Source: an uncultured candidate division WWE3 bacterium
GTDB taxonomy: Bacteria; Patescibacteriota; WWE3; UBA101185; UBA10185
Assembly (NCBI GenBank): GCA_963765125.1
Contig: CAVXUZ010000005.1
Location: 97,596 to 161,595, forward strand
Direction of reading: 5' to 3'
DNA length: 64,000 bases
The notes under the pieces are model-generated. The model had not been told where the DNA came from. It saw nothing but the letters and a program-made list of their open reading frames with translations, and did not search any database. A program made the position numbers and the translations under genes. Below are positions 2,586 to 42,076 of the stretch, in pieces; position 1 is the stretch's first letter; each line of letters opens with the position of its first letter.

Positions 2586-2945
2586 TTACTTATTAAAGGT
2601 TTCTTTTACTTTAAGTACTACCTGTTCAAATGCGCTGGGTTGGGTTACAGCCAAATCTGATAGTGATTTTCTGTCTAATTCAATTTTTGCTGTTTTTAAA
2701 CCTTTAATAAATGTACTGTAGTTTACTTCAAAAGGTTTCAATGCAGCGTTTATTCTTACAATCCAAAGTCTTCTCAACGCTCTTCGTCTTATTTTTCTTC
2801 CACCAAATGCGCGCTCGCCTGATCTAAGAACAGCCTCATGAGCTCTAGCAAAAAGCTTGCTTCTTGTTCCTCTATAACCCTTAGCAAGTTTTACAATTTT
2901 TGCATGTTTTGCGTGTTTTCTTTGTCCGTTTTTAACTCTAGGCAT
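2586..2945 (-). CDS. rplT: 50S ribosomal protein L20
   Basis: 119-aa basic protein [26 protein letters not shown]...; sits in the infC-rpmI-rplT operon. Confidence 0.95.
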
Positions 2946-3141
2946 GATTTCCTAACATCTTTCTTAATTTTTTAATATGACCTTTATTGCCTACAGATAC
3001 TTTTCTTAGTTTTCTAAATCTTTTACTGGTGCTCCATTTAACTTTAAGGTGGCCGGTATTTATTTGGCCATGAACAAGTTTTCCTGTTTTTGTAACTCTA
3101 AATCTTTTTAGTAATGTTTTTCTTGTTTTTAGTTTTCCCAT
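2938..3141 (-). CDS. rpmI: 50S ribosomal protein L35
   Basis: 67-aa Lys/Arg-rich [24 protein letters not shown]... between infC and rplT. Confidence 0.9.
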
Positions 3142-7856: not shown

Positions 7857-7983
7857 ATATATCTCCCTTCTCTGATAGTTGTGTGAAATTATAGCAGATT
7901 TATATAATTTTGGATAAAAGCGAACAGGTTTTTTGTGTGCACAAAAAAATACGTCCGCAAAAAATGCGGACTTAATTTTTATG

Positions 7984-8119
7984 GTGGCAAATCGTCGCTT
8001 TGCTCCTATTGCACGCCAACTCACTAAGCTCGAGTACGAGCAAGCGATTTGGTGGCAAATCGTCGCTTTGCTCCTATTGCACGCCAACTCACTAAGCTCA
8101 CTACGTTCGCTAAGTGATT
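7984..8119 (-). repeat. Two tandem ~67-nt copies of a tRNA 3'-trailer repeat abutting the tRNA-Val CCA end
   Basis: ggtggcaaatcgtcgctttgctcctattgcacgccaactcactaagctc appears twice (7984-8050, 8051-8119). The same motif family follows tRNA-Leu(TAG) at 17108-17137 and the tRNA-Trp 3' duplicate at 41268-41335. Confidence 0.8.
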
Positions 8120-16873: not shown

Positions 16874-17095
16874 TTATGGTTTGGTGATTTCTTTGCTTTG
16901 TTTCGAATACTTATCTATGAGTAGATAAATAATTGGTAGTATACCTACCGAGTTAATTACTAAAAGTGGAATAAACCAATATTTTTGTCCTCTTTGTGCT
17001 GATTTCCACAGAGCTATCCCTCTCCACACAGCATCCCAAGCAAGTGTAATAATAAAAACCAGCTTATTTTCAAATGTAAAATTAAAGTTGTTCAT
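16874..17095 (-). CDS. Small membrane protein (start moved to the ATG at 17095)
   Basis: The ORF-track extension overlaps tRNA-Leu; the internal start MNNFNFTFENK is followed by two TM helices. Confidence 0.45.
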   Translation of the reverse strand: MNNFNFTFENKLVFIITLAWDAVWRGIALWKSAQRGQKYWFIPLLVINSVGILPIIYLLIDKYSKQSKEITKP

Positions 17096-17137
17096 ATTGC
17101 ACTCCAACCCACTAAGCTCGAGTACGAGCAAGTGATT

Positions 17138-25490: not shown

Positions 25491-25512
25491 TTGGTTGTGG
25501 TGACAGGACTTG
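25491..25512 (-). repeat. Partial duplicate of the tRNA-Pro 3' end (T-loop to CCA), att-scar-like
   Basis: Minus-sense CAAGTCCTGTCACCacaACCA versus the genuine CAAGTCCTGTCACCccgACCA, 18/21 identical; 700 bp from tRNA-Pro, same orientation. Confidence 0.6.
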
Positions 25513-25595
25513 GTCAAGAGTTTAAGGCCCGTTAATTCACGTTGTTCATAAGTGTAAGTAAGCTCGTGCTCCCTTTTTTTTCGCTGGGTTCAGCC

Positions 25596-26186
25596 CTAAT
25601 TATTTAAGTCTTGTAACAAACAAAAAAGTGTGTTGTCCAAGTTCCGCATTTTACAACAAAATATACTAACTTGATTTTTTAAAGTTTCAAAATAGTCATT
25701 AGACTTTGGGTCCTCGTATTTGTCGTAAGCTTCTTGAATAAGCATTGTCAACTCATGCAACCATGATTCATAGAGTCTAGTATCCATGCTCTTCATAGTA
25801 GGTGAAAGCGCGTTATCTTCAATTTCAGCACTAATTGGTAGGGGAAAACTTTTTGGGTACTTTTGTGATAGATACACGAAAAAATTATCTGCTATGGAAA
25901 GTCTCTCGTCGAGTTTAGGCATTTCGGGCGCGTCTTGAATGGGTACAGGAAAACCCGCACTTTTAAATTCCGATACCTCAATCATATTTCTGGCTAGTTG
26001 TTTTTGAAACTCAGGATCTAATATACTCTGGGTCTCAGTGTTATAGCCGCTCTTTTTAATTTCTTCAGCCCAGTAGCTATTTTGTAGTAATCCCCCATCG
26101 AGCTTCTTGTCCAAGTAATCATAATTTATGGGTTTTTCATTTTCGGTGTGGGTGTCTTCTTGATTATAAGTCTCAAAGTTAAGCAT
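25596..26186 (-). CDS. Hypothetical protein (single gene enclosed between tRNA-Pro and its 3'-end duplicate)
   Basis: 196-aa ORF. Confidence 0.45.
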   Translation of the reverse strand: MLNFETYNQEDTHTENEKPINYDYLDKKLDGGLLQNSYWAEEIKKSGYNTETQSILDPEFQKQLARNMIEVSEFKSAGFPVPIQDAPEMPKLDERLSIADNFFVYLSQKYPKSFPLPISAEIEDNALSPTMKSMDTRLYESWLHELTMLIQEAYDKYEDPKSNDYFETLKNQVSIFCCKMRNLDNTLFCLLQDLNN

Positions 26187-26213
26187 AAAGTGTTTTCTTT
26201 CTACTAATTATTT

Positions 26214-26291
26214 CTGGTCGGGGTGACAGGACTTGAACCTGCGACCTCGCGGTCCCAAACCGCGCGCTCTAGCCAACTGAGCTACACCCCG
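26214..26291 (-). tRNA. tRNA-Pro (anticodon TGG), CCA encoded
   Basis: Manual fold: anticodon stem CGCGG/CCGCG with loop UUUGGGA, T-loop UUCAAGU, acceptor CGGGGUG/CACCCCG. Confidence 0.85.
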
Positions 26292-30229: not shown

Positions 30230-30288
30230 TATTTTTATTTGGTGGACTAGAAGCGACGACGTGTTAACTATTTAGGAATTTTAGTACT

Positions 30289-31965: not shown

Positions 31966-31980
31966 TGGTGGGCGAAGAGG
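31966..31980 (-). repeat. 15-nt duplicate of the tRNA-Leu(UAA) 3' end (tggtgggcgaagagg)
   Basis: Identical to the 3' end of the tRNA-Leu at 36750-36835, 4.8 kb away. Confidence 0.55.
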
Positions 31981-32084
31981 TATCTTTCACTTCGTTAAAG
32001 TTGCATCCACAACGACTAAACTCGCCTCGCTCGTTAAGTCTTGTGTAGGAGTCAAAGACATCCCTACTGCTCCATCAAAACAAA

Positions 32085-32148
32085 AAATCCAACCACAAGG
32101 GTTGGTTTTTCTTTTGTTTGGTGGGCCATCTGTCAGGATGTGCGAACT
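32085..32148 (+). repeat. Hairpin-plus-T-run, then 30-nt repeat tggtgggccatctgtcaggatgtgcgaact (copy 1)
   Basis: CCAACC-acaag-GGTTGG stem and T-run at 32085-32117; the 30-mer at 32119-32148 is identical to 33888-33917. Confidence 0.6.
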
Positions 32149-32869: not shown

Positions 32870-33487
32870 CTATTGCATTGCTGAAGTACCACTTAGATGA
32901 GATGTATCGTCAAATACAACTGGTGTAATTGTATTTTCCTCAAAGTCAAAGATTGAGATTGAAGCATTCTTTGGATCGTACTTGAATGATTCTTTTTTAG
33001 GTACTGACAATAAATAAGGCATTAGTGCTCTAATAGATCCTCCGTGAGTTACTATTCCAATTACAGCATTACTATTATCAGTATTTACTTGTTTAATATT
33101 ACTTATAAGTCGATGTTCGAAGTCTTTCCATGACTCACCTTTAGGCGGTACGAAGTCATAACGCTGTTCAAGAGATAACGGATCAAGAACAGTTTTTATT
33201 TCAGACCAGGGTTTTCCTGAATAATCTCCCCAGTTCCTTTCTTCCATGCCTGTAAGCGGTATAACTGGTATATTGCAAATCTTACTGATTATTTCAGCAC
33301 TTTGTAGTGCCCGAAATTCATTAGATGCATATAAAACATTGCAATTCAGTTCTTTCAACTTTTCACTTGTCTGTTGTATTTGTCTTATACCATTTTCAGT
33401 TAAATTATCAGGATCACCAAACTTATGTAACACATTTTTAACATTTGTTGCAGTTTCACCGTGTCTTACTAAAATTAATCTATTCAT
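32870..33487 (-). CDS. Histidine phosphatase-family protein (phosphoglycerate-mutase-like)
   Basis: N-terminal LVRHGETATN catalytic RHG motif; 205 aa. Confidence 0.7.
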   Translation of the reverse strand: MNRLILVRHGETATNVKNVLHKFGDPDNLTENGIRQIQQTSEKLKELNCNVLYASNEFRALQSAEIISKICNIPVIPLTGMEERNWGDYSGKPWSEIKTVLDPLSLEQRYDFVPPKGESWKDFEHRLISNIKQVNTDNSNAVIGIVTHGGSIRALMPYLLSVPKKESFKYDPKNASISIFDFEENTITPVVFDDTSHLSGTSAMQ

Positions 33488-33564
33488 TAGGATATTTTAA
33501 CAGAAAGTTCTAAATTCTCTCTTGGGTATATAAAAATAATGTTGTTGTGACAGTGTAAATTCTT

Positions 33565-33917
33565 TGGTGGGCGAGGAGGGAGTCGGTCACATGTTTTTCA
33601 TCTCTAGCTCATTACACTCGCAAGATCTGAAAGCATTCGATCCCGCCTCCTTCACTTCGTTCAGTCCGGTATTCGCCTCCTACTTTTACCAACAAAAAAG
33701 TGTCCATCAAACCTTTAGGTCTGCTGTACACTTTTCTGGTGGGCGAAGAGGGAGTCGGTCACCTGTTCTCGCCTGCTGGCTCGCCAGTCGACCCCGGCTC
33801 GGCACCGTCGTGCCTGCGCCTTTCGCCTCCCTTACTAGTCATAAGAAAAAAATATCCGGCATTGTAGCCGGCTATCTTTTTCTGGTGGGCCATCTGTCAG
33901 GATGTGCGAACTGCTTT
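33565..33917. repeat. Tandem att-scar-like array: two 26-nt tRNA-Leu(UAA) 3'-end duplicates, each followed by a core element, then hairpin plus 30-nt repeat copy 2
   Basis: tggtgggcgaGgagggagtcggtcac at 33565-33590 and tggtgggcgaagagggagtcggtcac at 33737-33762. Each is followed by a core related to 36599-36715. CCGGC-attgta-GCCGG hairpin plus T-run at 33856-33885, then the 30-mer at 33888-33917. Confidence 0.65.
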
Positions 33918-33955
33918 AGTTACTATTAACTACTAAAAAGTCTTAAAATAGATAT

Positions 33956-34798
33956 ATGTTGTATCATAGTGTCATGGAATTAAAAACAGCTAAGTTACAA
34001 AAACATTTCTACATGTACTGCGCGATGTTTTACGCAGATAATCGTACTATCGGTCATAAAGATTGGGTCTCAGAACTTAAAGATAAAGTTATTACTGCAC
34101 TTGAGAAATCAAACACACCAAAACTAGATATGCCCATGCATAGCTACCATTACCTTATGGGAATATTTAATCCAGAAGGTTACGAGGACCATGGGAGATT
34201 AATGATTCCTCCTAAAGAAGTTTTAGATTATGTTGAGCGAGTATCCGCACTCCCGGAATTACAAGAAATATGGAAACAATACGAGCCTGATTTTGATACT
34301 AGACTTAAGGATTTTGAGGAGCGTTTTATTGATATAGAAAACCTTTTTAAAAACCATTTTGATTATGAGCCTGATATTAAAACCTTTTATTTAACAAGAA
34401 ATTGGGATACATCGGGAAAATGTATTATAACTAAAGATGGTTACTACATTTTAGTTGGGTGGAAAAAAGAGGGCATAAATTTAAACCAAATACTACATGA
34501 ATTAACTCACAGTTATTTAGATAAATGTACATTAACCATTCCGAGGGACGTAAACGATTACCTTAAAAAAATGCCAGAGGAAGTTTTAGGATCTTATGCG
34601 AATCCCCATGCTTATATAGAAGAATCCATAATCCGGGCACTTGTATTGTATTTAAGTCATTCGGAAGAAAATATACAAAACTATTCTTTAGTAGGAACCG
34701 ACTTGGATATGATATTACCTGCAAAGTACTTAGATGTTTTGGAAAAAGATAAGCCCGAAAAGTTAACTATAGAATATCTCAATAAACTAGCCTATTAA
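33956..34798 (+). CDS. Hypothetical HExxH protein (putative zinc metallopeptidase)
   Basis: 280 aa with QILHELTHSY; adjacent to the Cys-rich peptide/rSAM pair. Confidence 0.45.
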   Translation: MLYHSVMELKTAKLQKHFYMYCAMFYADNRTIGHKDWVSELKDKVITALEKSNTPKLDMPMHSYHYLMGIFNPEGYEDHGRLMIPPKEVLDYVERVSALPELQEIWKQYEPDFDTRLKDFEERFIDIENLFKNHFDYEPDIKTFYLTRNWDTSGKCIITKDGYYILVGWKKEGINLNQILHELTHSYLDKCTLTIPRDVNDYLKKMPEEVLGSYANPHAYIEESIIRALVLYLSHSEENIQNYSLVGTDLDMILPAKYLDVLEKDKPEKLTIEYLNKLAY

Positions 34799-34888
34799 TA
34801 AACATTATTTTTGCTAAGAAAAGGTAAAGGGACTACTTCCAAGTGTATAAGAAGTAATCCCTTTTTTGGTGACGCTTGCCGGTAGTCT

Positions 34889-35050
34889 TTAGTCTTTTGG
34901 ACAGGACTGATCGTGCGGGCACGGGTCGTTGGTATTGCCACTGCAGGAATGCCCAGAACAATCTGACGAACACTTGCCGTCGGAAGGGCAATCAGCAAAG
35001 GCAGCTAACTGAGGTTGCCAGCGAACAACTTGCGTGAAATCGGTACCCAT
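34889..35050 (-). CDS. 53-aa six-cysteine RiPP-precursor-like peptide (SCIFF-like), not in the ORF track
   Basis: AAGGAG RBS 8 nt upstream of the ATG at 35050, 19 nt after the rSAM stop. Product MGTDFTQVVRWQPQLAAFADCPSDGKCSSDCSGHSCSGNTNDPCPHDQSCPKD. About 50% GC in a ~33% GC genome. Confidence 0.6.
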   Translation of the reverse strand: MGTDFTQVVRWQPQLAAFADCPSDGKCSSDCSGHSCSGNTNDPCPHDQSCPKD

Positions 35051-35069
35051 TGTCGTTTTCTCCTTTCTT

Positions 35070-36401
35070 TTAGAATTCGGACAACATGTCTTGTAGAAGC
35101 AGTAGCTTCACAATTATACAAGACTCTTGAAAAGTGTTCTCGCCTAAGTATCTAGAAATCGGACAGAAACCTTGGCAATTCCACCTTGCAAAACAATTTG
35201 AACACAGGTTTTTAGGTAATCCTCCATGTACCACAATGCGTGCGTGAGCATCGGGATTCATTACAGGTACCTGTGTGGTAGACCCAAAACTTCCATAGAA
35301 GAACAGTTCAGAGCCTGGATGCTGCTTCTTTGTGATACGCGAGCATCCGGAGACTGAACCATCGGGGCATACGCAAAACATTGTGCCTGTACTTGCTCCA
35401 CAGAATTGTAATTTATCTCTGCGGAATGTATCCAAAGTGCAAACAACGCGTAAACCTAGTTCCACTCCTATCCTACGAGCTTCTGTGTAGTATTTTACAA
35501 AAAGCCCCGGATCAACATCTAAATCAGTGGCGCCACTTGCTTTACCACAAAGTGATAGCGGCTCAAAGTGCACGAGTCCGTTCACTCCGTTTAACGCTTC
35601 TTTAGCAAGGAACCTTACAAAATTCGGCATTTCCTCCACACTCTTACTTGTTACTGTGGCACGAATAGAAAATGCTAGGCCAGCAGCCTTCAGATTTGCA
35701 ACCCCTTTCATGGCTGCTTTGAAAGAACCTTTGCCACCTACCATAGGGCGTTGCAGGTCTTGCACTGTTGCGACACCATCCAATGAGATTGTGATGTTAT
35801 CAACATTGTGTGACTTCAGCCATTCTGCAAACTTTGTAGTAATCAGTGTGGCGTTAGTCACTATGCTCACATGCAGTGTTATATCAAGCTTCTCGGCCAC
35901 TTGTAAGGCGTATAGGACGCATACCTTGAGCAGATTCTTTCGCTTCAGAGATTCCCCACCACCATGAAATGTTAGGGTGAAGTGTTTTCTGCCGCGGGAC
36001 TGTGCTAAACGCAATGCATAACTTATTGCGTTCTTTGCTACATCTTCAGGGATAGTTGTAGAATCACAACCCGCCTTTGCGTAGCAGTAGATACACCGAA
36101 GATTGCAGTCGTTGGTTAAAGATAAAGTAATTCCTTGCTCCCCAGGTAACGATTGAGTCGGTAAAGACCAATGTTCCGGAAGTGCGAGTAACCCGTTATC
36201 TGAAAGAAACTTAACCATAACTGGGTTGAATCCGTCTGCAGTACTGCCTTCTGAAACTGCAGAAATTAGCGTCTGAAGTTGTTCTGCTCCGCCTTGTGAT
36301 AACTTGGTTACCAAGCCATGCAATGGGGCATACAACAAGAAAGACGGTTCGTTCGGATACAGAATAAGAAAAAGCCAATCTTTAGGCTTTAGTGTGTCCA
36401 T
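35070..36401 (-). CDS. Radical SAM / SPASM-domain peptide-modifying enzyme
   Basis: CNLRCIYCYA (CxxxCxxC) and a C-terminal Cys cluster (CGASTGTMFCVCPDGSVSGC...CSNCFARWNCQGFCP) typical of SPASM. Start moved to MDTLKPKD (GAGAGGAG RBS). GC-richer than the surrounding sequence. Confidence 0.8.
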   Translation of the reverse strand: MDTLKPKDWLFLILYPNEPSFLLYAPLHGLVTKLSQGGAEQLQTLISAVSEGSTADGFNPVMVKFLSDNGLLALPEHWSLPTQSLPGEQGITLSLTNDCNLRCIYCYAKAGCDSTTIPEDVAKNAISYALRLAQSRGRKHFTLTFHGGGESLKRKNLLKVCVLYALQVAEKLDITLHVSIVTNATLITTKFAEWLKSHNVDNITISLDGVATVQDLQRPMVGGKGSFKAAMKGVANLKAAGLAFSIRATVTSKSVEEMPNFVRFLAKEALNGVNGLVHFEPLSLCGKASGATDLDVDPGLFVKYYTEARRIGVELGLRVVCTLDTFRRDKLQFCGASTGTMFCVCPDGSVSGCSRITKKQHPGSELFFYGSFGSTTQVPVMNPDAHARIVVHGGLPKNLCSNCFARWNCQGFCPISRYLGENTFQESCIIVKLLLLQDMLSEF

Positions 36402-36549
36402 CGCATCTTTTCTCCTCTCGATGATTATTTGATTTGTTGGCGTATTTATAGCATGAAAATGGCAATACCTCAATTTAAGATCTATTAACATGAGGCTATC
36501 TTTTTTTAAATGTGGGAAAATATAATTAAGTTTATGCCGTAAACACAAG

Positions 36550-36598
36550 AGTTCGACTCCCTCTTGGGTATTTGGTGGGCGAAGAGGGAGTCGGTCAC
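36550..36598. repeat. Inverted-repeat hairpin built from the tRNA-Leu 3' end: 20-nt repeat (36550-36569) plus 26-nt 3'-end duplicate (36573-36598)
   Basis: GTTCGACTCCCTCTT-gggtatttggtgggcg-AAGAGGGAGTCG, a perfect 12-bp inverted repeat. Confidence 0.65.
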
Positions 36599-36715
36599 AT
36601 GTCTTTCAACTCTAAATTCGCTCAAGCTCATTAAGATTTGAAAGCATTCGACCCCGCCTCCTTCACTCACTTCGTTCGCTCAGTCCGGCATTCTCGTCTC
36701 TCCTCAAAATGAAAA
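36599..36715 (-). repeat. Conserved ~115-nt non-coding core element (tRNA-3'-end-associated mini-element, copy B)
   Basis: gtcacatgtctttcaactctaaattcgc(tc)aagctcattaagatttgaaagcattcgacccc... is about 90% identical to 41362-41470 next to tRNA-Trp, with diverged copies at 33591-33700 and 33763-33850. Confidence 0.7.
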
Positions 36716-36748
36716 AGCTGAAAGTATTAAAACACTTCCAGCTTTTCC
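36706..36748 (-). terminator. Rho-independent terminator of tRNA-Leu(UAA)
   Basis: AAAAGCTG...CAGCTTTT 8-bp stem directly 3' of the tRNA, with a U-run on the minus strand. Confidence 0.55.
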
Positions 36749-36749
36749 A

Positions 36750-36835
36750 TGGTGGGCGAAGAGGGAGTCGAACCCTCACGTCCTAATGGACAAGAGATTT
36801 TAAGTCTCTCGTGTCTGCCATTCCACCACTCGCCC
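36750..36835 (-). tRNA. tRNA-Leu (anticodon TAA), long variable arm, CCA encoded
   Basis: Manual fold: anticodon loop CUUAAAA, T-loop UUCGACU, 3' CUCUUCGCCCACCA. Confidence 0.85.
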
Positions 36836-36892
36836 ATAAAATTCTTCGTAGCAAGGCATATTATACATATTACATCGAGGGATTTGTAGTGG

Positions 36893-37285
36893 TTACCGCT
36901 CGTTAATTAAATCAGCCAATTCCTTAAGTTCGTCCATTGTTGTTTTGTATGTCGGTTGCGCTCCGAACTTTCCTTTATAAATAGGAATTAGTTTAGCGTG
37001 AAGGTGTGGCACGTCTAGTCCTTCAAAAATGACGGATGTTCTTAAAATTTCTGGCAACTTTTGGTCTAAGATTTTTGCAACTTCTTTAACCGCGTCCATC
37101 AGTGGTGTAAGTTCGGTTGTTTCAACGTTAACCAAATAACTATCTTCATGTTTTTTTGGGATGACAAGGGTCATACCGCGTTCATACGGATTTATGTCTA
37201 AGAACGCAATAAACTTTTTATTCTCCCAAATTTTATAAGATGGAATTTCACCACGCGCGATTTTACAAAATAAACAGTCTTCCAT
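36893..37285 (-). CDS. HIT-family (histidine triad) hydrolase
   Basis: 130 aa; HLHAKLIP HxHxH motif. Confidence 0.8.
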   Translation of the reverse strand: MEDCLFCKIARGEIPSYKIWENKKFIAFLDINPYERGMTLVIPKKHEDSYLVNVETTELTPLMDAVKEVAKILDQKLPEILRTSVIFEGLDVPHLHAKLIPIYKGKFGAQPTYKTTMDELKELADLINER

Positions 37286-37292
37286 AATTGCT

Positions 37293-37368
37293 TGGCGCCC
37301 CCGGCGGGAGTCGAACCCACGACCTCTTCCTTAGAAGGGAATTGCTCTATCCTCTGAGCTACGAGGGC
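37293..37368 (-). tRNA. tRNA-Arg (anticodon TCT), CCA encoded
   Basis: Manual fold: acceptor GCCCUCG/CGGGGGC, anticodon loop CUUCUAA (U33, A37), T-loop UUCGACU. Confidence 0.75.
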
Positions 37369-37534
37369 TTAAAAATAAGCCAAATTCAAGCATTTTGTAT
37401 TTTACACGATTGAGGGCAAAGAATAAACCTAGATTATGTAGTTTTTGTAAAATTGTTTCTCAGTAGGTAGGGGTGTATAATCCTGAAAAATAGTGCTTAA
37501 AAAGGTTAATATCATAGTGTTGAGGAGGCATATT

Positions 37535-38578
37535 ATGGAAGGGTTAGGTATTTACGGAGGTTGGTTGACGGTAAACCGCTTTTGTAATTTTAGATGCGGC
37601 TGGTGTTACGCTAAGGGGACAAAATTTAAATCAGAAGATAGTATGTCTGTTGAGCTTGCTAAGAATCTGATTAATTTGATGCACACAATTGGAGTTCATA
37701 ACGTAATACTTATCGGCGGAGAAACTTTGTTTTGGCCCCACTTGTTTTCTATCGCGACGTACATTAAGTCTCTAGGTATGACGAGTGCGGTTGTTACAAA
37801 TGGCTGGTTGTTGGGATTTGAAAAGTTTCGAAAAAAAGTAGAGACCTCAGATATTACTTCTCTCAGTATTTCACTAAAAGCAGGTAACAGGCACCAATAT
37901 GAGAAGCTAACTGGCTTTGATGGATTCGAAAAGGTAGTTGATGGTCTTCGCGAAGTTTCCAAGTGGAAAAACATAAGGGTGGAAACCACAACCGTTGTGA
38001 ACACAGAAGTACTAAGGAATATTGATGAGATAGCAAAGTTGGCGTTTGATAACGGGGCAGAATCTTTCAACATCTCAATGTGTGGTCCAGTGATTAGCGA
38101 TGGTGTATTTGACAACCGATTTGTTCCAGAACCAAAAGATGTTGTGAATACATTTTTGAGTAAATACGAATTACTTCATTCGCTAAGTAAAGGAAAATTT
38201 TCTATCGAGGCAGCACTTCCTACCTGTCTTTGGCCAAAGGAGTTTTTACATAAGCTGGAAGAAAACGATCAGATATCTTATGGGTGTCACTTTAAAACGA
38301 GAAGTGGGGTCATCTTTGACAGATTAGGTAGAATTATACCGTGCAATCAGCTTTTCGATTACCCTATGGGGCAATATGGCGAAGACTTTACAGATCTAGC
38401 TAGCTTTTCCGAAGTTTGGAATAGCCCCCAGCTAAATGCATTTTATGATAAAATGCTTGAGTACCCAGCAATAGCCTGCGTTAAATGCGGCGAATTTGAT
38501 AAGTGTGGCGGTGGTTGCCCACTAAACTGGTTTGTTAGGGATCCAGAGACAGTAATAGAAAAAGGAGAGCGCGTATGA
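37535..38578 (+). CDS. Radical SAM / SPASM-domain enzyme (second copy), translationally coupled to a Cys-rich peptide
   Basis: CNFRCGWCYAKG CxxxCxxC and C-terminal CVKCGEFDKCGGGCP SPASM-like cluster. Start moved to the ATG at 37535 (GAGGAGG RBS). The stop TGA overlaps the peptide ATG (ATGA). Confidence 0.8.
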   Translation: MEGLGIYGGWLTVNRFCNFRCGWCYAKGTKFKSEDSMSVELAKNLINLMHTIGVHNVILIGGETLFWPHLFSIATYIKSLGMTSAVVTNGWLLGFEKFRKKVETSDITSLSISLKAGNRHQYEKLTGFDGFEKVVDGLREVSKWKNIRVETTTVVNTEVLRNIDEIAKLAFDNGAESFNISMCGPVISDGVFDNRFVPEPKDVVNTFLSKYELLHSLSKGKFSIEAALPTCLWPKEFLHKLEENDQISYGCHFKTRSGVIFDRLGRIIPCNQLFDYPMGQYGEDFTDLASFSEVWNSPQLNAFYDKMLEYPAIACVKCGEFDKCGGGCPLNWFVRDPETVIEKGERV

Positions 38579-38745
38579 ACGCAAATCTAATGGATTTGGC
38601 TGCACAAAGAAAGAGCACCGGTGTAGTTCTAGACAAGCGTCCTTCAGGTAATCAAACTAAGACGATTATTATGGGGCATTGTCAGTGCAGATGCGCAAAT
38701 TGCAAATGTAATTGCTTTTGTGCGCAATGCAAAGCTAGTTTGTAA
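38575..38745 (+). CDS. 56-aa Cys-rich RiPP-precursor-like peptide (8 Cys in the last 20 residues), not in the ORF track
   Basis: AAGGAG 7 nt upstream. Product MNANLMDLAAQRKSTGVVLDKRPSGNQTKTIIMGHCQCRCANCKCNCFCAQCKASL; ATGA overlap with the rSAM stop. Confidence 0.65.
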   Translation: MNANLMDLAAQRKSTGVVLDKRPSGNQTKTIIMGHCQCRCANCKCNCFCAQCKASL

Positions 38746-38757
38746 CTGCTCAAATTT

Positions 38758-38798
38758 GGGGGATATTTAAGGTACCTAACTACTTTTAGATATCCCCC
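38758..38798 (+). promoter_or_regulatory. Perfect 9-bp stem hairpin (GGGGGATAT...ATATCCCCC) between the peptide and the HExxH gene
   Basis: 23-nt loop containing the palindrome AGGTACCT; no U-run, so possibly an attenuator or processing site rather than a terminator. Confidence 0.4.
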
Positions 38799-38833
38799 TT
38801 ATCCATGAGGCATTTAATTTAGATACTTGATGG

Positions 38834-39226
38834 ATGATCACATATAAATATATTGAAAACTACTTCAAAGATGACTCAGATTCGGAAGAGTTTTGTAAAA
38901 AACACAACATTGTGTACTTCAAGCCCACCCGAGAAAGAAAAGCTTGGTTAAAAAAGTGGCTTAAGGACGTAAAATTACCAAAAATTGAGTGCAAACGCGA
39001 CATAACGTGCTATTGGCGAGATTTTGGAACATGGGGAATGTACCACCCAGAAGATAATTCTATATCAATATGTCCTTATGAGATTGAGCGAGCTGGAGGA
39101 CTAGAGCAAGTTATACTTCATGAAATTGTGCATTTAGAGCACCCCGAACTTGATAAGTTACCACACAACCAAAAAGAAGATAAAATAAATGGACTAGGTA
39201 ATAAACCTAAAAAAGATAAAGCGTAG
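38834..39226 (+). CDS. YgjP/DUF45-like zinc metallopeptidase (HExxH)
   Basis: DFGTWGMY...ICPYEI...VILHEIVHLEH matches the WGSC / HELxH architecture of the YgjP (WLM-like) family. Confidence 0.5.
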   Translation: MITYKYIENYFKDDSDSEEFCKKHNIVYFKPTRERKAWLKKWLKDVKLPKIECKRDITCYWRDFGTWGMYHPEDNSISICPYEIERAGGLEQVILHEIVHLEHPELDKLPHNQKEDKINGLGNKPKKDKA

Positions 39227-39256
39227 ACTTTTTTGTAATCTACGCTTTTATTTCAG

Positions 39257-39643
39257 TTACCGCTGGTTGTTGTTCGCCTTGTTGATGTACAGATCGAGAG
39301 GATCTGCGGGTCCAAATTTGTCGATCATAAGCATGTTTAAAACCACATAGTTGACGTACAAACCCACGGCCAGTACTCCAGCGTAGCCAATTATGAGCCA
39401 TATTCCTTTTAAACTAAAAATATCGAGTAACAGGGTGAGTATTAGAAATACTAGTATGGTAAAAACAACGTAAAGACCCACACCGGTTTTCACTATAATG
39501 AAAGCCTTTTCGAACCAACTTAACGGTTTGTTTTCCATTTCAGCCTCCTCCGAGTTTAGTTGTCCTATAGTATACAAGATGGTTTGGTGATAGGCAACAT
39601 CTTCATAGGCAATAAAAAAGTGCAAATTTTGATGGATTTGCAC
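39257..39643 (-). CDS. Hypothetical small membrane protein
   Basis: 128 aa with 3 TM segments. Confidence 0.4.
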   Translation of the reverse strand: MQIHQNLHFFIAYEDVAYHQTILYTIGQLNSEEAEMENKPLSWFEKAFIIVKTGVGLYVVFTILVFLILTLLLDIFSLKGIWLIIGYAGVLAVGLYVNYVVLNMLMIDKFGPADPLDLYINKANNNQR

Positions 39644-39662
39644 TTTGATTTAACAGCCAGTA

Positions 39663-39911
39663 CTAAACTTTGTGACCATACTTCAATAAACCAATGTTTA
39701 TTGCCTCATGCACCAGGGCAATGAAATTTACCAAAGCGACTAGGCCAAAAATTACCAAAAGCACCCTAATATTCATCCCGTTGTCAATCCGATGGATAAT
39801 GTAGGCAAATGTAGCTATCCCGCATATGAGAACGTTTACTACAAGGTTCGCTTTAAAGACCTTCACAAATGCTTTTTTCGAACAATAAAAAATAGCATTA
39901 AGTTTTTTCAT
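39663..39911 (-). CDS. Hypothetical small membrane protein
   Basis: 82 aa with 2 TM segments. Confidence 0.4.
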   Translation of the reverse strand: MKKLNAIFYCSKKAFVKVFKANLVVNVLICGIATFAYIIHRIDNGMNIRVLLVIFGLVALVNFIALVHEAINIGLLKYGHKV

Positions 39912-39980
39912 GCCATCCTCTCCTCTTATTTTGTCGATTGGCTGTAATATACGCTAGTTTTAAAATTTAAACAATTTTTA

Positions 39981-40715
39981 CTATTTATGATCACCAAACC
40001 TATGTACTATCTTATTTTGTAATTTCTTATAATTACGTTTGGATAAAATTAAATATAATTCGCTTTTTAACATTTTTTTATAAAAATTTAGTCTTCCTTC
40101 TTCATCTAACCTTCTTACTGAAAAATGAATTCCTGGAGAACGAAGAATCTTAGTGTTATATCCTGCTTGATGTAGCTTGCTGCTCAAATCAAAATCCTCA
40201 GCAAGCGATAGGCTTGTATCAAATTCACCAACTTTTTTAAACGCATCTTTCTTTACAAATATGAACGTACCCACAGACCCGTGTGTCCATTTTCTAAAAA
40301 TATCTAAGTAAAGAATATTAAAAGCACTGCTCGTTAAGTGATCGTCGAGTCTGTGGCTCATTGGTATATTCCAAGCAGTTACCGAGTCGGCCCTGCCCGA
40401 CGAAACGAGTCCGTCTAATGTTTTAAGAAAGTTTTTAGAAGGCTTAACGTCGGCATCGAAGAAAATTAAATTATTTGTTTTAGCTTTAGACGCAGCATAA
40501 TTTCTTTGAAATGACTGCCCCTTTTGTGGAGAAATAAAAGTTGTTATTTTAAGTGAAGATTTAAATTCATCAGCTTTCTCTATCGTTTTATCTTTAGATT
40601 TTGCATCAGCCACGATTACTTCAAAATCCTTGTGCGTTTGCTCTTTTAGAGCGTTTAACAGGATGGGGAGATATTCCTCTTCATTAAGTGTTGGTATGCA
40701 GATGCTAAATTTCAT
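39981..40715 (-). CDS. Family-2 glycosyltransferase
   Basis: SICIPTLNEEEYL...VIVADAKSKDKT GT-A N-terminus; 244 aa. Confidence 0.7.
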   Translation of the reverse strand: MKFSICIPTLNEEEYLPILLNALKEQTHKDFEVIVADAKSKDKTIEKADEFKSSLKITTFISPQKGQSFQRNYAASKAKTNNLIFFDADVKPSKNFLKTLDGLVSSGRADSVTAWNIPMSHRLDDHLTSSAFNILYLDIFRKWTHGSVGTFIFVKKDAFKKVGEFDTSLSLAEDFDLSSKLHQAGYNTKILRSPGIHFSVRRLDEEGRLNFYKKMLKSELYLILSKRNYKKLQNKIVHRFGDHK

Positions 40716-40756
40716 TTGAGTTTATCGGCAGATTAAATCGAAGTTGTAAGAGCTGG

Positions 40757-41245
40757 CTAATTCCTAGTCCATTCAGCTTTTACACCCTTGACTTTTCTAT
40801 CCGCTAAAACCAACTCATCATATATGCCGTCTATTAAATCGTAGTTCTTTCCTTCATCTATTGTTACCCATGCATATTTATCAGTCTCATCTTTTTGTAA
40901 TGTAATATTTCCAGATTCGTAATCAGCTTTGCATGAAATAACCAACGAAGGATTACCGTCTGAGTGTATTGTCGCTAAACTTGTTACATACTCAATGTTG
41001 TTTATCTCTAGTCCTACTTCTTCTTTTACTTCTCTGCGTAAAACTTTCTCTAAAACGTTGTACCAATAAAATTCAGTATCTTTTGGTAGCGATACATAAT
41101 CTTCTGTTTCTAACTTACCTCCAGGTACAGTCCATTTACCAGGAAATCTCTTTTTATCTTTTGAACGTCTGGTTATAAGGTATTTACCGTTTTTGACGAT
41201 TATTGCGGTGATAACAATTTCGTGTAGTAATTTATCTTTTTCCAT
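40757..41245 (-). CDS. NUDIX hydrolase
   Basis: Nudix box GGKLE...REVKEEVGLEI. Confidence 0.8.
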   Translation of the reverse strand: MEKDKLLHEIVITAIIVKNGKYLITRRSKDKKRFPGKWTVPGGKLETEDYVSLPKDTEFYWYNVLEKVLRREVKEEVGLEINNIEYVTSLATIHSDGNPSLVISCKADYESGNITLQKDETDKYAWVTIDEGKNYDLIDGIYDELVLADRKVKGVKAEWTRN

Positions 41246-41267
41246 ACTTTTTTAGTATAAATCTGGA

Positions 41268-41505
41268 GGCAAATCGTCGCTAACGCTCCTATTGCATCTC
41301 AGAGTTCTAAAGCTCACTTTGTTCGCTAAGTGCTTTGGAGCGGAAAACGGGATTCGGTCACATGTCTTTCAACTCTAAATTCGCAAGCTCATTAAGATAT
41401 GAAAGCATTCGACCCCACCTCAGTCGCTTACGCTCCTTCCGGCATTCTCGTCCCCTATTCCCCATGAATAAGCCCACTAACCCTTTGGGTTACTGCGCAT
41501 CTTCA
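41268..41505 (-). repeat. tRNA-Trp-associated mini-element: core copy C (41362-41505), 26-nt duplicate of the tRNA-Trp 3' end (41336-41361), then trailer-repeat copy (41268-41335)
   Basis: tggagcggaaaacgggattcggtcac duplicates the T-loop-to-CCA segment of the adjacent tRNA-Trp. The core is about 90% identical to 36599-36715. The trailer aaagcacttagcgaacaaagtgagc...gcgacgatttgcc resembles the trailers after tRNA-Val and tRNA-Leu(TAG). Confidence 0.7.
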
Positions 41506-41582
41506 TGGAGCGGGAAACGGGATTCGAACCCGCGACCTCCTCCTTGGAAGGGAGGCGCTCTAGCCAGCTGAGCTATTCCCGC
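41506..41582 (-). tRNA. tRNA-Trp (anticodon CCA), CCA end encoded
   Basis: Manual fold: acceptor GCGGGAA/UUCCCGC, anticodon stem CCUCC/GGAGG with loop CUUCCAA, T-loop UUCGAAU. Confidence 0.85.
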
Positions 41583-41626
41583 ACAAACACTAACTGCGTT
41601 TTATGCGCAGAGCATATTGTACCCAT

Positions 41627-42076
41627 TTAATAATGTTTTTTCAAAAGGTTTTTCTTCCTTTTCTCGTACTCATGCTCTGAGATTTTTCCGTTGTTTTTAA
41701 GTTCTGCCAGCCTCTTCATGGATAATTCAAAGTCTTTTATGACAAGACTTCCCTCTTTCTCACCCATCAAATGCTTATGTGATTGGTACATTTTCTCGTC
41801 GATGATTTTTTTCATCTTAACAGCAGATTTTTTATCAATCCATCTAATTCTTATGTATTGGTGGCCAGTTGAAAGAATATCAATATGTGCAAATTTTACA
41901 ATATATTTTTGTAAGTCAACCTGTGCGATGTGATTATATCCAACAGTGACCTCTTCGTGTGTCATCAAGTGCCTTTTTTTGTAAACAATTTTATCGTCAT
42001 AAAGATATAAATGAGGTCTAAAAAGTGTGAGATTGTACAGTCTATTTCCAGCAACGTGAATTAGAAGAGTTGACAT
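41627..42076 (-). CDS. Hypothetical protein with C-terminal SHOCT-like motif
   Basis: The C-terminal ...LAELKNNGKISEHEYEKRKKNLL resembles the SHOCT short C-terminal domain. Confidence 0.4.
   Translation of the reverse strand: MSTLLIHVAGNRLYNLTLFRPHLYLYDDKIVYKKRHLMTHEEVTVGYNHIAQVDLQKYIVKFAHIDILSTGHQYIRIRWIDKKSAVKMKKIIDEKMYQSHKHLMGEKEGSLVIKDFELSMKRLAELKNNGKISEHEYEKRKKNLLKKHY

Follow-up and report, generated by a model that had tools for sequence, protein, structure and literature searches.

The classic signature of elements that integrate into tRNA genes is a pair of direct repeats, each reaching from the T-loop as far as the 3' end of the gene. The tRNA genes of Patescibacteria are also known to harbor group I introns, which lie in the anticodon loop, interrupt the tRNA and match the Rfam group I model (PMC13011429); when the literature was searched for an equivalent of the element analyzed below, the paper describing them was the only one of even loose relevance. 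This element occurs four times in the window, the whole 64-kb stretch of WWE3 DNA under study, and direct repeats of a tRNA 3' segment are present at both of its ends.

Copies of the unit in the window

Behind the tRNA, the unit is ordered as spacer (often a terminator-like hairpin), 5' arm, two-hairpin core and tRNA-derived tail; it measures roughly 150 bases (range about 100–180 bp) and has no coding content. The feature described in the first-pass annotation is present at a level well beyond chance. A covariance model (R1) returned exactly four matches in the window, with E = 2e-25 to 3e-23 (next best E = 0.27 with filters off), and all four copies, together with the Leu and Gly host tRNAs, lie on the minus strand. 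The parts of the copy behind tRNA-Leu(UAA) are as follows, A2 being the family alignment.

36750–36835, minus strand: host gene tRNA-Leu(UAA), intact, CCA encoded (ARAGORN; Rfam tRNA 55.4 bits)
36710–36749, minus strand: spacer hairpin directly after the tRNA-Leu CCA, terminator-like UGGAAAAGC...GCUUUUUCA, then U-rich (fold)
36696–36705, minus strand: P1 5' arm GAGGAGAGAC, complementary to the tRNA-derived tail (MFE fold)
36655–36695, minus strand: junction J1/2 (GAGAAU, GAA invariant) and helix P2 (alignment A2)
36594–36653, minus strand: helix P3, base GGUCGAAUG/CAUGUGACC, with a long apical hairpin in the Leu copy (folds)
36573–36593, minus strand: tail CGACUCCCUCUUCGCCCACCA, an exact copy of tRNA-Leu(UAA) nt C56–A76 (21/21, 0 mismatches; sequence match)
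36546–36565, minus strand: inverted T-arm-like fragment pairing with the Leu tail over 12 bp, in the Leu copy only

Spacers of like form that start with (A)TGAAAA are found in copies from other genomes, behind other tRNAs as well. In alignment A2 the P2 helix of the Leu copy has the base GCC/GGC, beyond which lies an arm that varies and contains tandem G.A loops, and the conserved base of P3 combines an invariant G.U pair with an A.G mismatch. The first part of the Leu tail is the 3' strand of P1. The same tail can pair instead with the inverted fragment; this perfect 12-bp hairpin, described in the first-pass annotation, is real (dG −20.2 kcal/mol) and peculiar to this copy. A riboswitch was rejected as an interpretation, since no copy other than Leu has this alternative hairpin of the tail and the downstream genes differ. 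The second host gene and the other three copies have these parts.

41506–41582, minus strand: second host gene, tRNA-Gly(UCC) (ARAGORN, Rfam)
41336–41505, minus strand: Gly copy, whole unit (R1 87.7 bits, E = 2.9e-23)
41465–41505, minus strand: Gly copy, spacer hairpin
41450–41463, minus strand: Gly copy, P1 5' arm
41416–41449, minus strand: Gly copy, J1/2 and P2
41356–41414, minus strand: Gly copy, P3
41336–41356, minus strand: Gly copy, tail, 20/21 to tRNA-Gly
33737–33882, minus strand: copy D, whole unit, short-P3 subtype (R1 90.9 bits)
33834–33882, minus strand: copy D, terminator-like spacer
33827–33833, minus strand: copy D, P1 5' arm
33795–33826, minus strand: copy D, J1/2 and P2
33757–33793, minus strand: copy D, P3
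33737–33757, minus strand: copy D, tail, 21/21 to tRNA-Leu(UAA)
33565–33736, minus strand: copy C, whole unit, long-P3 subtype, in tandem with D (R1 87.6 bits)
33677–33683, minus strand: copy C, P1 5' arm
33644–33676, minus strand: copy C, J1/2 and P2
33585–33642, minus strand: copy C, P3
33565–33585, minus strand: copy C, tail, 20/21 to tRNA-Leu(UAA)

Several claims of the first-pass annotation changed at this point. It had named tRNA-Trp as the second host, which ARAGORN and Rfam identify as tRNA-Gly(UCC). Of its 21–26-nt duplicate, 21 nt (C56–A76) hold; the longer figure does not, the additional 5 nt, which read GTCAC on the plus and GTGAC on the minus strand, being part of the core. The ~90% identity that it reported between the two cores applies only across the 3' hairpin and junction (66/73); the overall identity of the Leu and Gly cores is 80% (99/123). 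The diverged tandem copies that it placed near 33591–33850 are confirmed as two tandem copies, one at 33562–33695 and the other at 33734–33844. Both have Leu-type tails, yet the tRNA-Leu gene is 3 kb away. In the Gly copy, the 5' arm fits the tail and not the tRNA, because an A of the arm faces U68 of the tail where tRNA-Gly itself has C68.

Several further small units with tRNA-like ends were seen in the same 64-kb window, and CCA-ended structured units of other kinds share the same tRNA operons. The window also holds a 0.7-kb insert with a 196-aa ORF, situated between tRNA-Pro and a 19/21 copy of tRNA-Pro nt 56–76.

Fold and host-specific ends

On the tRNA-sense strand, the unit forms a three-way junction of helices P1, P2 and P3 that is backed by covariation, and not the imperfect long hairpin initially described. 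In P1, the 5' arm is paired with the tRNA-derived copy, starting at nt 59 and continuing along the 3' strand of the T-stem and beyond; in effect, the modeled unit would be a T-arm-like helix whose loop has been replaced by the P2/P3 core. The 5' arm that closes P1 by complementing the tail, a feature overlooked in the first reading, changes along with the host tRNA: across the family alignment both sides differ in 7 of 8 P1 pairs, and in L144 arm and tail are perfectly complementary over 16 nt. The base of P2 covaries as GCC/GGC, GGC/GCC and GUC/GAC, and P3 shows A-U/C-G covariation, in 13 versus 10 sequences. Paired cells amount to 85%, and to 32–37% when the partners are slid. Covariation analysis, one of the checks proposed by the first-pass annotation for an RNA structure, gave a score of 0.234 versus 0.107 for shuffled alignments, with 0 of 500 shuffles reaching the observed value. 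The junction, whose strands are GAGAAU, G(G) and GA in alignment A2, is recovered by single-sequence MFE folds in most copies.

Wobble cells outside the invariant G.U pair are balanced (15 G.U versus 16 A.C) and therefore do not decide between RNA and folded DNA; the folding energies favor the tRNA-sense strand, which in every one of the 24 copies is more stable than the antisense strand (means of −40.4 and −33.2 kcal/mol, respectively). No sigma-70-like promoter was found ahead of the cores, and a terminator-like hairpin sits between the tRNA and several of them. Co-transcription of the unit with the tRNA is probable, as is a role of the conserved core as a folded RNA. The first 5–16 nt of the tail are paired in P1, and about 11 tail nt are single-stranded in folds of the short-subtype copies. 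Two known RNA architectures were considered and set aside: as read from alignment A2, the junction appears incompatible with a hammerhead, with a G at the H17 position and CUGANGA missing, and a two-piece tmRNA was rejected on sequence grounds. Model R1 aligns weakly (17.9 bits) to a real tRNA-Ser.

Family distribution, occupied and element-free loci

About 30 distinct copies were found beyond the window, in Saccharibacteria, WWE3 and metagenomes, and all matches in named genomes belong either to Saccharibacteria (7 MAGs) or to WWE3 (2). Our first search pattern, TCGAMTG..ACAKGTGACCGA, was too loose, returning 118 hits that were mostly chance matches in GC-rich genomes; an nhmmer screen of these 118 hits left 9 real loci. 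The hosts comprise at least 17 tRNA isoacceptors, among them Leu(UAA, CAG, CAA), Gly(UCC, CCC, GCC), Ser(GGA, UGA, GCU, CGA), Val, Ala(UGC, GGC), Asp, Arg, Gln and His, and the tail nearly always matches the adjoining tRNA. The search for copies elsewhere thus bore out the original proposal of a non-coding family that is common to different tRNAs and ends in a tRNA-specific copy.

The tail reproduces the neighboring tRNA from C56 on and is 18–23 nt long in most copies; in L126 the repeat is a perfect 45 nt that reaches into the tRNA trailer. The tRNA gene stays intact because the segment from C56 to the 3' end occurs twice. Where the tRNA gene lacks an encoded CCA (L140, L132), the tail ends at about nt 73/74, and it must therefore have been copied from the gene and not from the mature tRNA; retro-copying of mature tRNA was rejected for the same reason. 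The short-subtype copies L119, L121 and L138 start only ~20 nt past the tRNA, with no terminator between. In L083 the core directly follows nt 1–53 of a tRNA-Glu copy, and P1 is therefore the T-stem itself. Gly-linked copies from Saccharibacteria and WWE3 have a common P2 hairpin, GCGUAAGCG, and are followed by a family-2 unit, which fits long vertical residence over frequent movement.

At a syntenic tRNA-Asp/LysM/tRNA-Gly(CCC) locus, the element is present in four genomes and absent in seven. Behind tRNA-Gly(CCC), L029, L035 and L157 carry the long subtype and L163 the short one, while no copy was detected after tRNA-Gly in L158 (with 76 nt visible), L160, L161/L162 and L164–L166. The existence of occupied states, in two subtypes, and of free states at one orthologous locus indicates that the unit is discrete and is gained or lost, in keeping with the earlier proposal of a discrete unit at tRNA 3' ends. 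Ten of the first 11 nt past the tail in L157 equal the sequence directly after the tRNA in the element-free L158, a short match (alignment z about 2.6 over 76 nt) in genomes where 'GAT' after CCA is common. The element-free sites could equally be precise losses via recombination between the 21-nt repeats. A D-loop analogue is present in L164/L166.

Further signs of turnover are tandem arrays (copies C and D of the window; three copies in L144) and truncated 3' fragments behind full copies in L144 and L137. The tail is decayed with P1 intact in L013 and L136, and in these two and L084 the part past P1, CCA included, has decayed although the core is intact; a tRNA-like 3' end is therefore not required. 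Other routes to element-free sites gave none: orthologs of the radical-SAM gene adjoining the Leu copy are 56–91% identical and lie in broken synteny with no tRNA-Leu and no element, and the nearest relative of the HIT gene outside the source genome is only 55% identical. Exact-protein look-ups of the window HIT and NUDIX proteins returned no records.

No protein could be associated with the unit. In an all-against-all BLAST of 400 ORFs, no ORF family recurred within 5 kb of the copies, and Pfam models of recombinases, transposases, RT, TnpB and Cas1 had no matches among the 23 window ORFs of 270 aa or more and the smaller ORFs beside the copies. The recombinase or IS110-like gene that the first-pass annotation suggested looking for was accordingly absent within 5 kb of the copies and among these 23 ORFs; this included tyrosine and serine recombinases, searched for near the ~30 copies, and TnpB, IscB, IS110 and Cas genes adjoining any copy. 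The Rfam scan that it had also suggested (Rfam 15; gathering score over the whole window, E ≤ 10 over 33300–42000) yielded no match on the cores (33562–33844, 36570–36714 and 41333–41468), and ARAGORN with Rfam clan CL00001 reported only six real tRNAs in the window, with no tmRNA and no odd tRNA. A two-part core pattern had 0 matches in IMG/VR, and blastn against 50,697 phage records found none. No identity block with inverted core-binding arms spans the crossover: identity begins at C56, and the sequences to its left are asymmetric (GTGAC versus GGGTT). Direct reading of the unit ends revealed no terminal inverted repeats joining them, and the repeat length is not fixed, unlike in MITEs and IS-derived transposons with their short target duplications of constant length.

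Interpretation and comparison with known systems

We favor, at a probability of about 0.55, a structured and non-autonomous element that inserts at the 3' ends of tRNA genes in Saccharibacteria and WWE3, both Patescibacteria, and is moved in trans. Observed directly were a family with a covarying fold, host-specific tails and 5' arms, no protein encoded in the unit or linked to it, and one orthologous tRNA locus both with and without the element. On this proposal, the unit would be inserted at, or precisely lost from, the T-loop/3' end of tRNA genes by machinery supplied in trans, and a functional P1 would re-form only at targets whose T-stem/acceptor 3' strand fits the 5' arm, a requirement that would bind each lineage to its own tRNA. 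The first-pass annotation had envisaged plain target-site duplication and had set aside an integrase with a fixed attB. A complementary 5' arm that varies with the host, however, is not explained by plain target-site duplication, and the repeat ranges from 18 to 45 nt with no fixed length; an integrase-type mechanism with an element-borne tRNA end may still operate.

The unit may instead be a resident, immobile gene for a structured sRNA that is co-transcribed with the tRNA, with local gene conversion or template switching keeping its tail and 5' arm in step with that tRNA, and with the element-free sites being losses. P1 and the NCCA tail would then imitate an acceptor/T-arm minihelix, and the enzymes that mature tRNA ends would hence excise and protect the RNA. 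A fold that covaries and a junction kept invariant in two phyla with very small genomes are what such a gene would show, as are the better folding of the sense strand in all 24 copies, the close and terminator-free position of L119, L121 and L138, the likeness of Gly-linked copies across phyla, the other CCA-ended units in the same tRNA operons and the weak alignment of R1 to tRNA-Ser. We nevertheless think this unlikely, for related genomes have different core subtypes at one and the same tRNA-Gly(CCC) site, orphan, tandem and truncated copies exist, the tail beyond P1 decays with its CCA while the core stays intact, and the perfect 45-nt repeat of L126 points to a recent DNA-level event. If the conserved sequence were only an attP arm, its structure incidental and the copies inert attL/attR scars of ordinary integrase islands, the T-loop-to-3'-end repeats would find a familiar explanation, as would the tRNA-Pro insert and its 19/21 repeat in the same window. 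That is very improbable given three helices maintained by covariation, a host-specific 5' arm ~100 nt away from the crossover, the lack of identity left of C56 and of inverted core-site symmetry, and the recurrence of one compact form behind at least 17 isoacceptors in two phyla with no integrase nearby.

Two RNA-based mechanisms were also weighed. An intron-like or ribozyme element acting on tRNA T-loop RNA would have its core as a small catalytic RNA, cleaving or splicing at U55/C56, with the 5' arm resembling an internal guide for the 3' exon. It draws on the boundary inside a tRNA loop, an arm complementary to the 3' flank (compare P10 or EBS–IBS pairings), the core directly after nt 1–53 of tRNA-Glu in L083, the D-loop analogue in L164/L166 and the abundance of tRNA group I introns in Patescibacteria (PMC13011429). 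It is a very unlikely explanation, however: no Rfam ribozyme or intron model matches even at E ≤ 10, a ~100-nt core is too small for a group I intron, group II introns are reported absent from Patescibacteria (PMC13011429), the hammerhead mapping of the junction fails, the tRNA is usually complete already, which makes splicing needless, and CCA-less tails behind CCA-less genes argue against passage through mature RNA. Slighter still are the chances of a guide RNA for a nuclease or recombinase encoded elsewhere, in the style of TnpB omega-RNA or IS110 bridge RNA, in which the core is the scaffold, the tail the guide and the tRNA gene the target. A scaffold of ~100 nt is indeed followed by a variable 18–21-nt 3' segment that matches a genomic site beside the invariant T-loop GGTT, and ~11 tail nt are single-stranded in short-subtype copies; yet P1 ties up the first 5–16 nt of the putative guide, cores persist in copies whose tails have decayed, no omega-RNA or HEARO-type Rfam model matches, and no TnpB, IscB, IS110 or Cas gene adjoins any copy or appears among the 23 ORFs (≥270 aa) of the window.

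Returning to an insertion element moved in trans, a wider generalization can be offered tentatively: the tRNA genes of candidate-phyla bacteria may be colonized by an unrecognized class of protein-less, structure-guided mini-elements that enter loops (the T-loop, or the D-loop in L164/L166), preserve the tRNA by carrying or duplicating its displaced segment and choose their target by pairing between arm and flank, with the folded core as a recombination or catalytic module. If true, this would be a guided insertion system that differs from CRISPR-like systems as well as from integrases, IS elements and introns. The genomes of Patescibacteria are tiny and leave little DNA to spare, yet four copies lie in 64 kb, and the units are therefore either important RNAs or very successful parasites. 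If they are processed RNAs, they would constitute a new abundant class of small RNA in a phylum with almost no characterized non-coding RNAs. Because they mimic tRNA ends and att sites, they will confuse genome annotation.

Among known systems, CIME-like elements, which are non-autonomous attL/attR remnants of islands driven by integrases, resemble the unit in their position at the tRNA 3' end, T-loop-to-3'-end direct repeats, an intact tRNA, the lack of an encoded recombinase and tandem accretion. The present element differs in its size of ~100–180 bp, in having one core behind at least 17 isoacceptors, an arm complementary to the repeat and a covarying three-way junction, and in lacking identity or core-site symmetry left of C56 and an integrase near the copies. 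Casposons and CRISPR spacer integration likewise generate long target duplications (14–37 bp) and repeat-insert-repeat arrays, and some casposons lie at tRNA 3' ends; in contrast, the element has no Cas1 in the window or near the copies, no terminal inverted repeats and a variable repeat length, and its inserts are homologous structured units and not captured DNA. The group I introns of the same phylum (PMC13011429) are also structured non-coding tRNA-loop inserts, mostly without homing endonuclease genes, but the element is smaller, fits no intron model, RF00028 included, and leaves the tRNA in front of it intact, apart from one case in a T-loop.

A tRNA-like helix with an NCCA end in a tRNA transcription unit recalls the t-elements of plant mitochondria, MALAT1 mascRNA, viral TLS and bacterial YrlA, and by analogy it is plausible that tRNA end-processing enzymes serve as maturation factors of the element RNA. 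Unlike in these RNAs, tRNA-derived sequence is confined to the 3' half of the T-arm and the acceptor strand, and it is identical to the neighbor and not generic; the acceptor 5' strand is usually missing, and no match to the Rfam tRNA clan occurs outside the real tRNAs. Integron attC sites offer an analogy only: they too are structured, strand-specific and non-coding, with a variable middle, arrays and an outer stem completed beyond the recombination point, which a P1 completed by its target would recall. The element has neither the GTTRRRY/RYYYAAC core nor IntI or attI; its target is the tRNA T-loop/3' end, and its repeat is 18–45 nt. The combination of a conserved fold with two host-specific ends, a tRNA 3'-end copy and its complement, is a design held by none of the catalogued families tested and, if pairing sets the position of the element, would provide a protein-less example of guided tRNA-gene targeting.

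Copies in the window and across genomes

All relevant features are on the minus strand. Six tRNA genes were identified in the window by ARAGORN and Rfam, and the second host, called tRNA-Trp in the first-pass annotation, is tRNA-Gly(UCC) by both.

Host tRNA genes and family-1 copies in the window
36750-36835, minus: tRNA-Leu(UAA) (ARAGORN and Rfam)
36749-36710, minus: Leu copy, 40-nt terminator-like hairpin directly downstream of tRNA-Leu
36705-36696, minus: Leu copy, 10-nt purine-rich arm
after the purine-rich arm, minus: Leu copy, conserved stretch starting GAGAAUGCCGG
3' of the GAGAAUGCCGG stretch, minus: Leu copy, long hairpin
between long hairpin and tail, minus: Leu copy, motif CAUGUGAC
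36593-36573, minus: Leu copy, tail, exact 21-nt duplicate of tRNA-Leu C56-A76
41506-41582, minus: tRNA-Gly(UCC) (ARAGORN and Rfam)
41505-41336, minus: Gly copy downstream of tRNA-Gly, parts ordered as in the Leu copy
33882-33565, minus: copies C and D, head to tail, both with Leu-type tails

The duplicated tRNA 3' end is present and tRNA-specific as claimed (21/21 positions for Leu, 20/21 for Gly), its length being 21 nt rather than 21-26 nt. The reported core identity of about 90% holds across the 3' hairpin and junction, whereas the Leu and Gly copies agree at 80% overall. The tandem copies placed at 33591-33850 are indeed two, and despite their Leu-type tails they lie 3 kb from the tRNA-Leu gene. 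Pairing of the Leu tail with an inverted fragment at 36546-36565 into a 12-bp hairpin was confirmed, and was seen in the Leu copy only. The element holds no conserved ORF, in agreement with its description as non-coding, and Rfam 15 gave no match to the element regions at gathering score, nor any at E ≤ 10.

Hits of two pattern scans, screened with nhmmer and covariance models, yielded ~30 distinct family-1 copies; the element is thus not confined to the loci first noted. Matches in named genomes comprised seven Saccharibacteria MAGs, two WWE3 genomes and no others, the remainder being metagenome contigs, and copies were absent from IMG/VR and from 50,697 phage genomes. As far as sampled, the element is confined to Patescibacteria. 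The covariance model R1, built on 24 sequences and searched with filters off, found exactly four copies in the window (E = 2e-25 to 3e-23; next match, E = 0.27).

The hosts are tRNA-Leu (UAA, CAG, CAA), Gly (UCC, CCC, GCC), Ser (GGA, UGA, GCU, CGA), Val(CAC), Ala (UGC, GGC), Asp, Arg(UCG), Gln and His. The tail 3' of GUGAC repeats the adjacent tRNA exactly, starting at C56 and over 18-23 nt, in nearly all copies. The expectation that every copy abuts a tRNA 3' fragment therefore holds for nearly all, the tails being partly decayed in some; in L013, L136 and L084 they are decayed past the first 9-12 nt and the core is intact. In L126 a perfect 45-nt repeat includes 26 nt of tRNA trailer. Where the tRNA genes lack an encoded CCA (L140, L132), the tail ends at about nt 73/74, indicating that the template was the tRNA gene and not the mature tRNA. 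Retro-transposition is unlikely, since the tails are copied from genes and group II introns are reported to be absent from the phylum (PMC13011429).

A three-way junction closed by the tRNA-derived tail

The stretch immediately 5' of the conserved GAGAAU, missed in the first-pass annotation, is the complement of the tail and varies with the host.

Pairing of 5' arm and tail in four copies from other loci
L014: arm AGGGAGUGGGAU, tail segment AUCCCGCUCCCU, 12 bp with one G.U
L035: arm GACGAGGU, tail segment ACCUCGUC, 8 bp
L144, third copy: arm CCAGCGAGAAU, tail segment AUUCUCGCUGG, 11 bp
L144, first copy: arm GUGCUCCCGGAGGGAC, tail segment its perfect complement, 16 nt

A three-helix structure was drawn by hand and scored on the family-1 alignment A2: P1 joins the 5' arm to tail nt 59-66, P2 has the base GCC/GGC, and P3 is GGUCGAMUG/CAKGUGACC. 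Paired cells made up 85%, compared with 32-37% when partners were slid, and the covariation score of 0.234 (0.107 in shuffles) was reached in 0/500 shuffles, in support of the three helices. Seven of the eight P1 pairs change on both sides, the P2 base alternates among GCC/GGC, GGC/GCC and GUC/GAC, and one P3 pair is A-U in 13 sequences and C-G in 10. For most copies, single-sequence MFE folding gave the same junction. The tRNA-sense strand was more stable than its complement in 24/24 copies (means, -40.4 versus -33.2 kcal/mol). With one invariant G.U pair set aside, G.U and A.C cells are balanced (15 and 16), and the element may accordingly be RNA or folded single-stranded DNA.

In the Gly copy of the window, an arm A faces tail U68; the tRNA carries C68 at this position, so the arm is matched to the tail and not to the tRNA. 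For the perfect 16-nt arm of L144, one might speculate that it was templated, for example by quasi-palindrome correction through template switching, rather than built by slow compensation.

Occupied and unoccupied tRNA ends

Eleven genomes provided the syntenic tRNA-Asp / LysM / tRNA-Gly(CCC) locus, collected by way of the LysM-domain gene that lies upstream of the element in L029. The tRNA-Gly(CCC) is followed by a copy with the long-P3 core in L029, L035 and L157 and by a short-P3 copy in L163; no copy was detected in L160, L161/L162, L164-L166 or L158, whose contig extends only 76 nt past the tRNA. The unoccupied end of L158 reads ...CCGCUCCA|GAUGUUUGAAG, and the occupied end of L157 reads ...CCGCUCCA|spacer-core-GUGAC|CGAGUCCCGUCAUCCGCUCCA|GAUAUUUGAAG. 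The flank after the L157 tail matches that after the L158 tRNA at 10 of the first 11 nt (alignment score z ~2.6 over the full 76 nt). The element is a discrete unit, gained or lost at orthologous tRNA 3' ends; unoccupied sites may be either ancestral or left by precise deletion. Two distinct core subtypes at one tRNA-Gly(CCC) site argue for independent arrivals. The spacer hairpin is part of the unit: related spacers recur with different hosts and phyla (window Gly copy and L163; L157 and L024).

Copies stand in tandem in the window (C and D) and in L144 (three copies), and truncated 3' fragments lie behind full copies at L144 and L137. In L083, a Candidatus Saccharimonas MAG, a divergent family-1 core (~2840-3055, minus) directly follows nt 1-53 of a tRNA-Glu copy that has three substitutions in the acceptor 5' strand, an intact tRNA-Glu lying ~60 nt downstream. 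Here P1 is the T-stem itself, and the arrangement looks as if one of two tandem tRNA genes had received an insertion in its T-loop.

Other small structured units are fused to tRNA-end copies in these genomes (among them families 2 to 4, the D8 motif, a tRNA-Pro cassette and a strain-level D-loop insertion). Family 2, without an Rfam match, consists of ~68-72-nt units ending in ...GAUUUGCC-N-CCA, N being the discriminator base of the host tRNA (window 7982-8049, 8050-8119, 17088-17137 and 41264-41335, minus; L035 ~1690-1765). It sits behind tRNA-Val as a tandem pair, tRNA-Leu(UAG) as a partial unit, and the family-1 Gly copy, and by eye is ~80% conserved between a Saccharibacterium and a WWE3 genome. 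The 30-nt motif AGUUCGCACAUCCUGACAGAUGGCCCACCA, resembling a tRNA 3' end with small insertions, occurs at 33883-33912, 32119-32148 and 30240-30269 (minus), immediately past the stop codons of LigT-like and DUF389 ORFs and where the C/D array begins, and in L066 upstream of the family-1 copy. A third unit of ~110 nt (31966-32076, minus), flanked by the DUF389 gene on one side and by the D8 motif and its terminator on the other, has the final 15 nt of the tRNA-Leu tail, CCUCUUCGCCCACCA, at its end. At 25492-26291 (minus), tRNA-Pro is followed by a 196-aa ORF without a Pfam match and a 19/21 copy of tRNA-Pro nt 56-76 after TTGAC; the junction precedes C56 as in family 1, TTGAC is similar to the family-1 GTGAC, and the locus resembles a T-loop insertion of a 0.7-kb cassette. 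L164 (3608-3745) and L166 differ from L165, presumably the same species given identical LysM proteins, by a strain-level 138-nt insertion directly 5' of tRNA-Gly(CCC): a copy of tRNA nt 1-18, a 65-nt insert with two hairpins, a repeated TGG, tRNA nt ~17-29 and a 41-nt spacer before the intact tRNA. This is a D-loop counterpart of the T-loop elements. L135 (2900-3450) carries another core family on tRNA-Cys and tRNA-Phe tails, with junction GAGCAAGMUCUU before A58; the Phe-linked unit has three tandem 51-nt repeats, and the Cys-linked unit is like a T-arm copy split within its loop. A hairpin module containing a triloop and tandem G.A mismatches (GCGAAC-NNN-GUGAGC or GAGC-NNN-GCGA; 36655-36695, 8090-8115, 32020-32045 and related loci) recurs in family 1, where it appears in P2 and P3, and in families 2 to 4, and may be a shared protein-binding motif. 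With so many kinds of unit, small structured units appear generally to invade or decorate tRNA genes in these bacteria.

Mobility, function and closest known systems

The unit is structured, non-coding and host-tagged. We infer a non-autonomous insertion element, probably moved in trans. It may enter either at U55/C56 with its own tRNA 3' end, integrase-like, or past CCA, duplicating nt 56-76. P1 would form again only if the flank derived from the tRNA is matched by the arm that the element carries, which would tie each lineage to a tRNA. The trans-acting recombinase envisaged in the first-pass annotation was not found within the window: its 23 ORFs of at least 270 aa and the smaller ORFs beside copies gave no recombinase, transposase, reverse transcriptase, TnpB or Cas1 hit, and such genes as could be identified have ordinary housekeeping roles in a small chromosome. 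When the 400 ORFs lying no more than 5 kb from copies were compared all against all, no neighbour family recurred. The block at 33956-36401 (radical-SAM gene, small ORF, 275-280-aa ORF) is conserved in L152 (10001-12412; radical-SAM protein 91% identical), where it has a NUDIX gene upstream and no nearby tRNA-Leu or element; the region has been rearranged between close relatives.

The chief alternative is a resident gene for an sRNA that the tRNA machinery matures. This reading and that of an insertion element are compatible, since the conserved junction suggests that the folded core has a function. No sigma-70-like promoter was found upstream of the cores; a terminator-like hairpin precedes some, and short-subtype copies begin ~20 nt past the tRNA without a terminator. 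A T-loop intron or ribozyme, an omega-RNA or bridge-RNA-like guide and an inert att scar each fail at least one tested feature.

The known systems that come nearest are CIME-like remnants of integrases at tRNA genes, long target duplications of the Cas1 type at tRNA ends, tRNA-like elements of 3' processing and, by logic only, integron attC sites, whose outer stem the completion of P1 by the target formally resembles. None of these joins a conserved three-way junction, a host-specific tail and a complementary arm. We rate the element as belonging with tRNA-end-associated non-autonomous elements, with an appreciable chance that it is categorically new.
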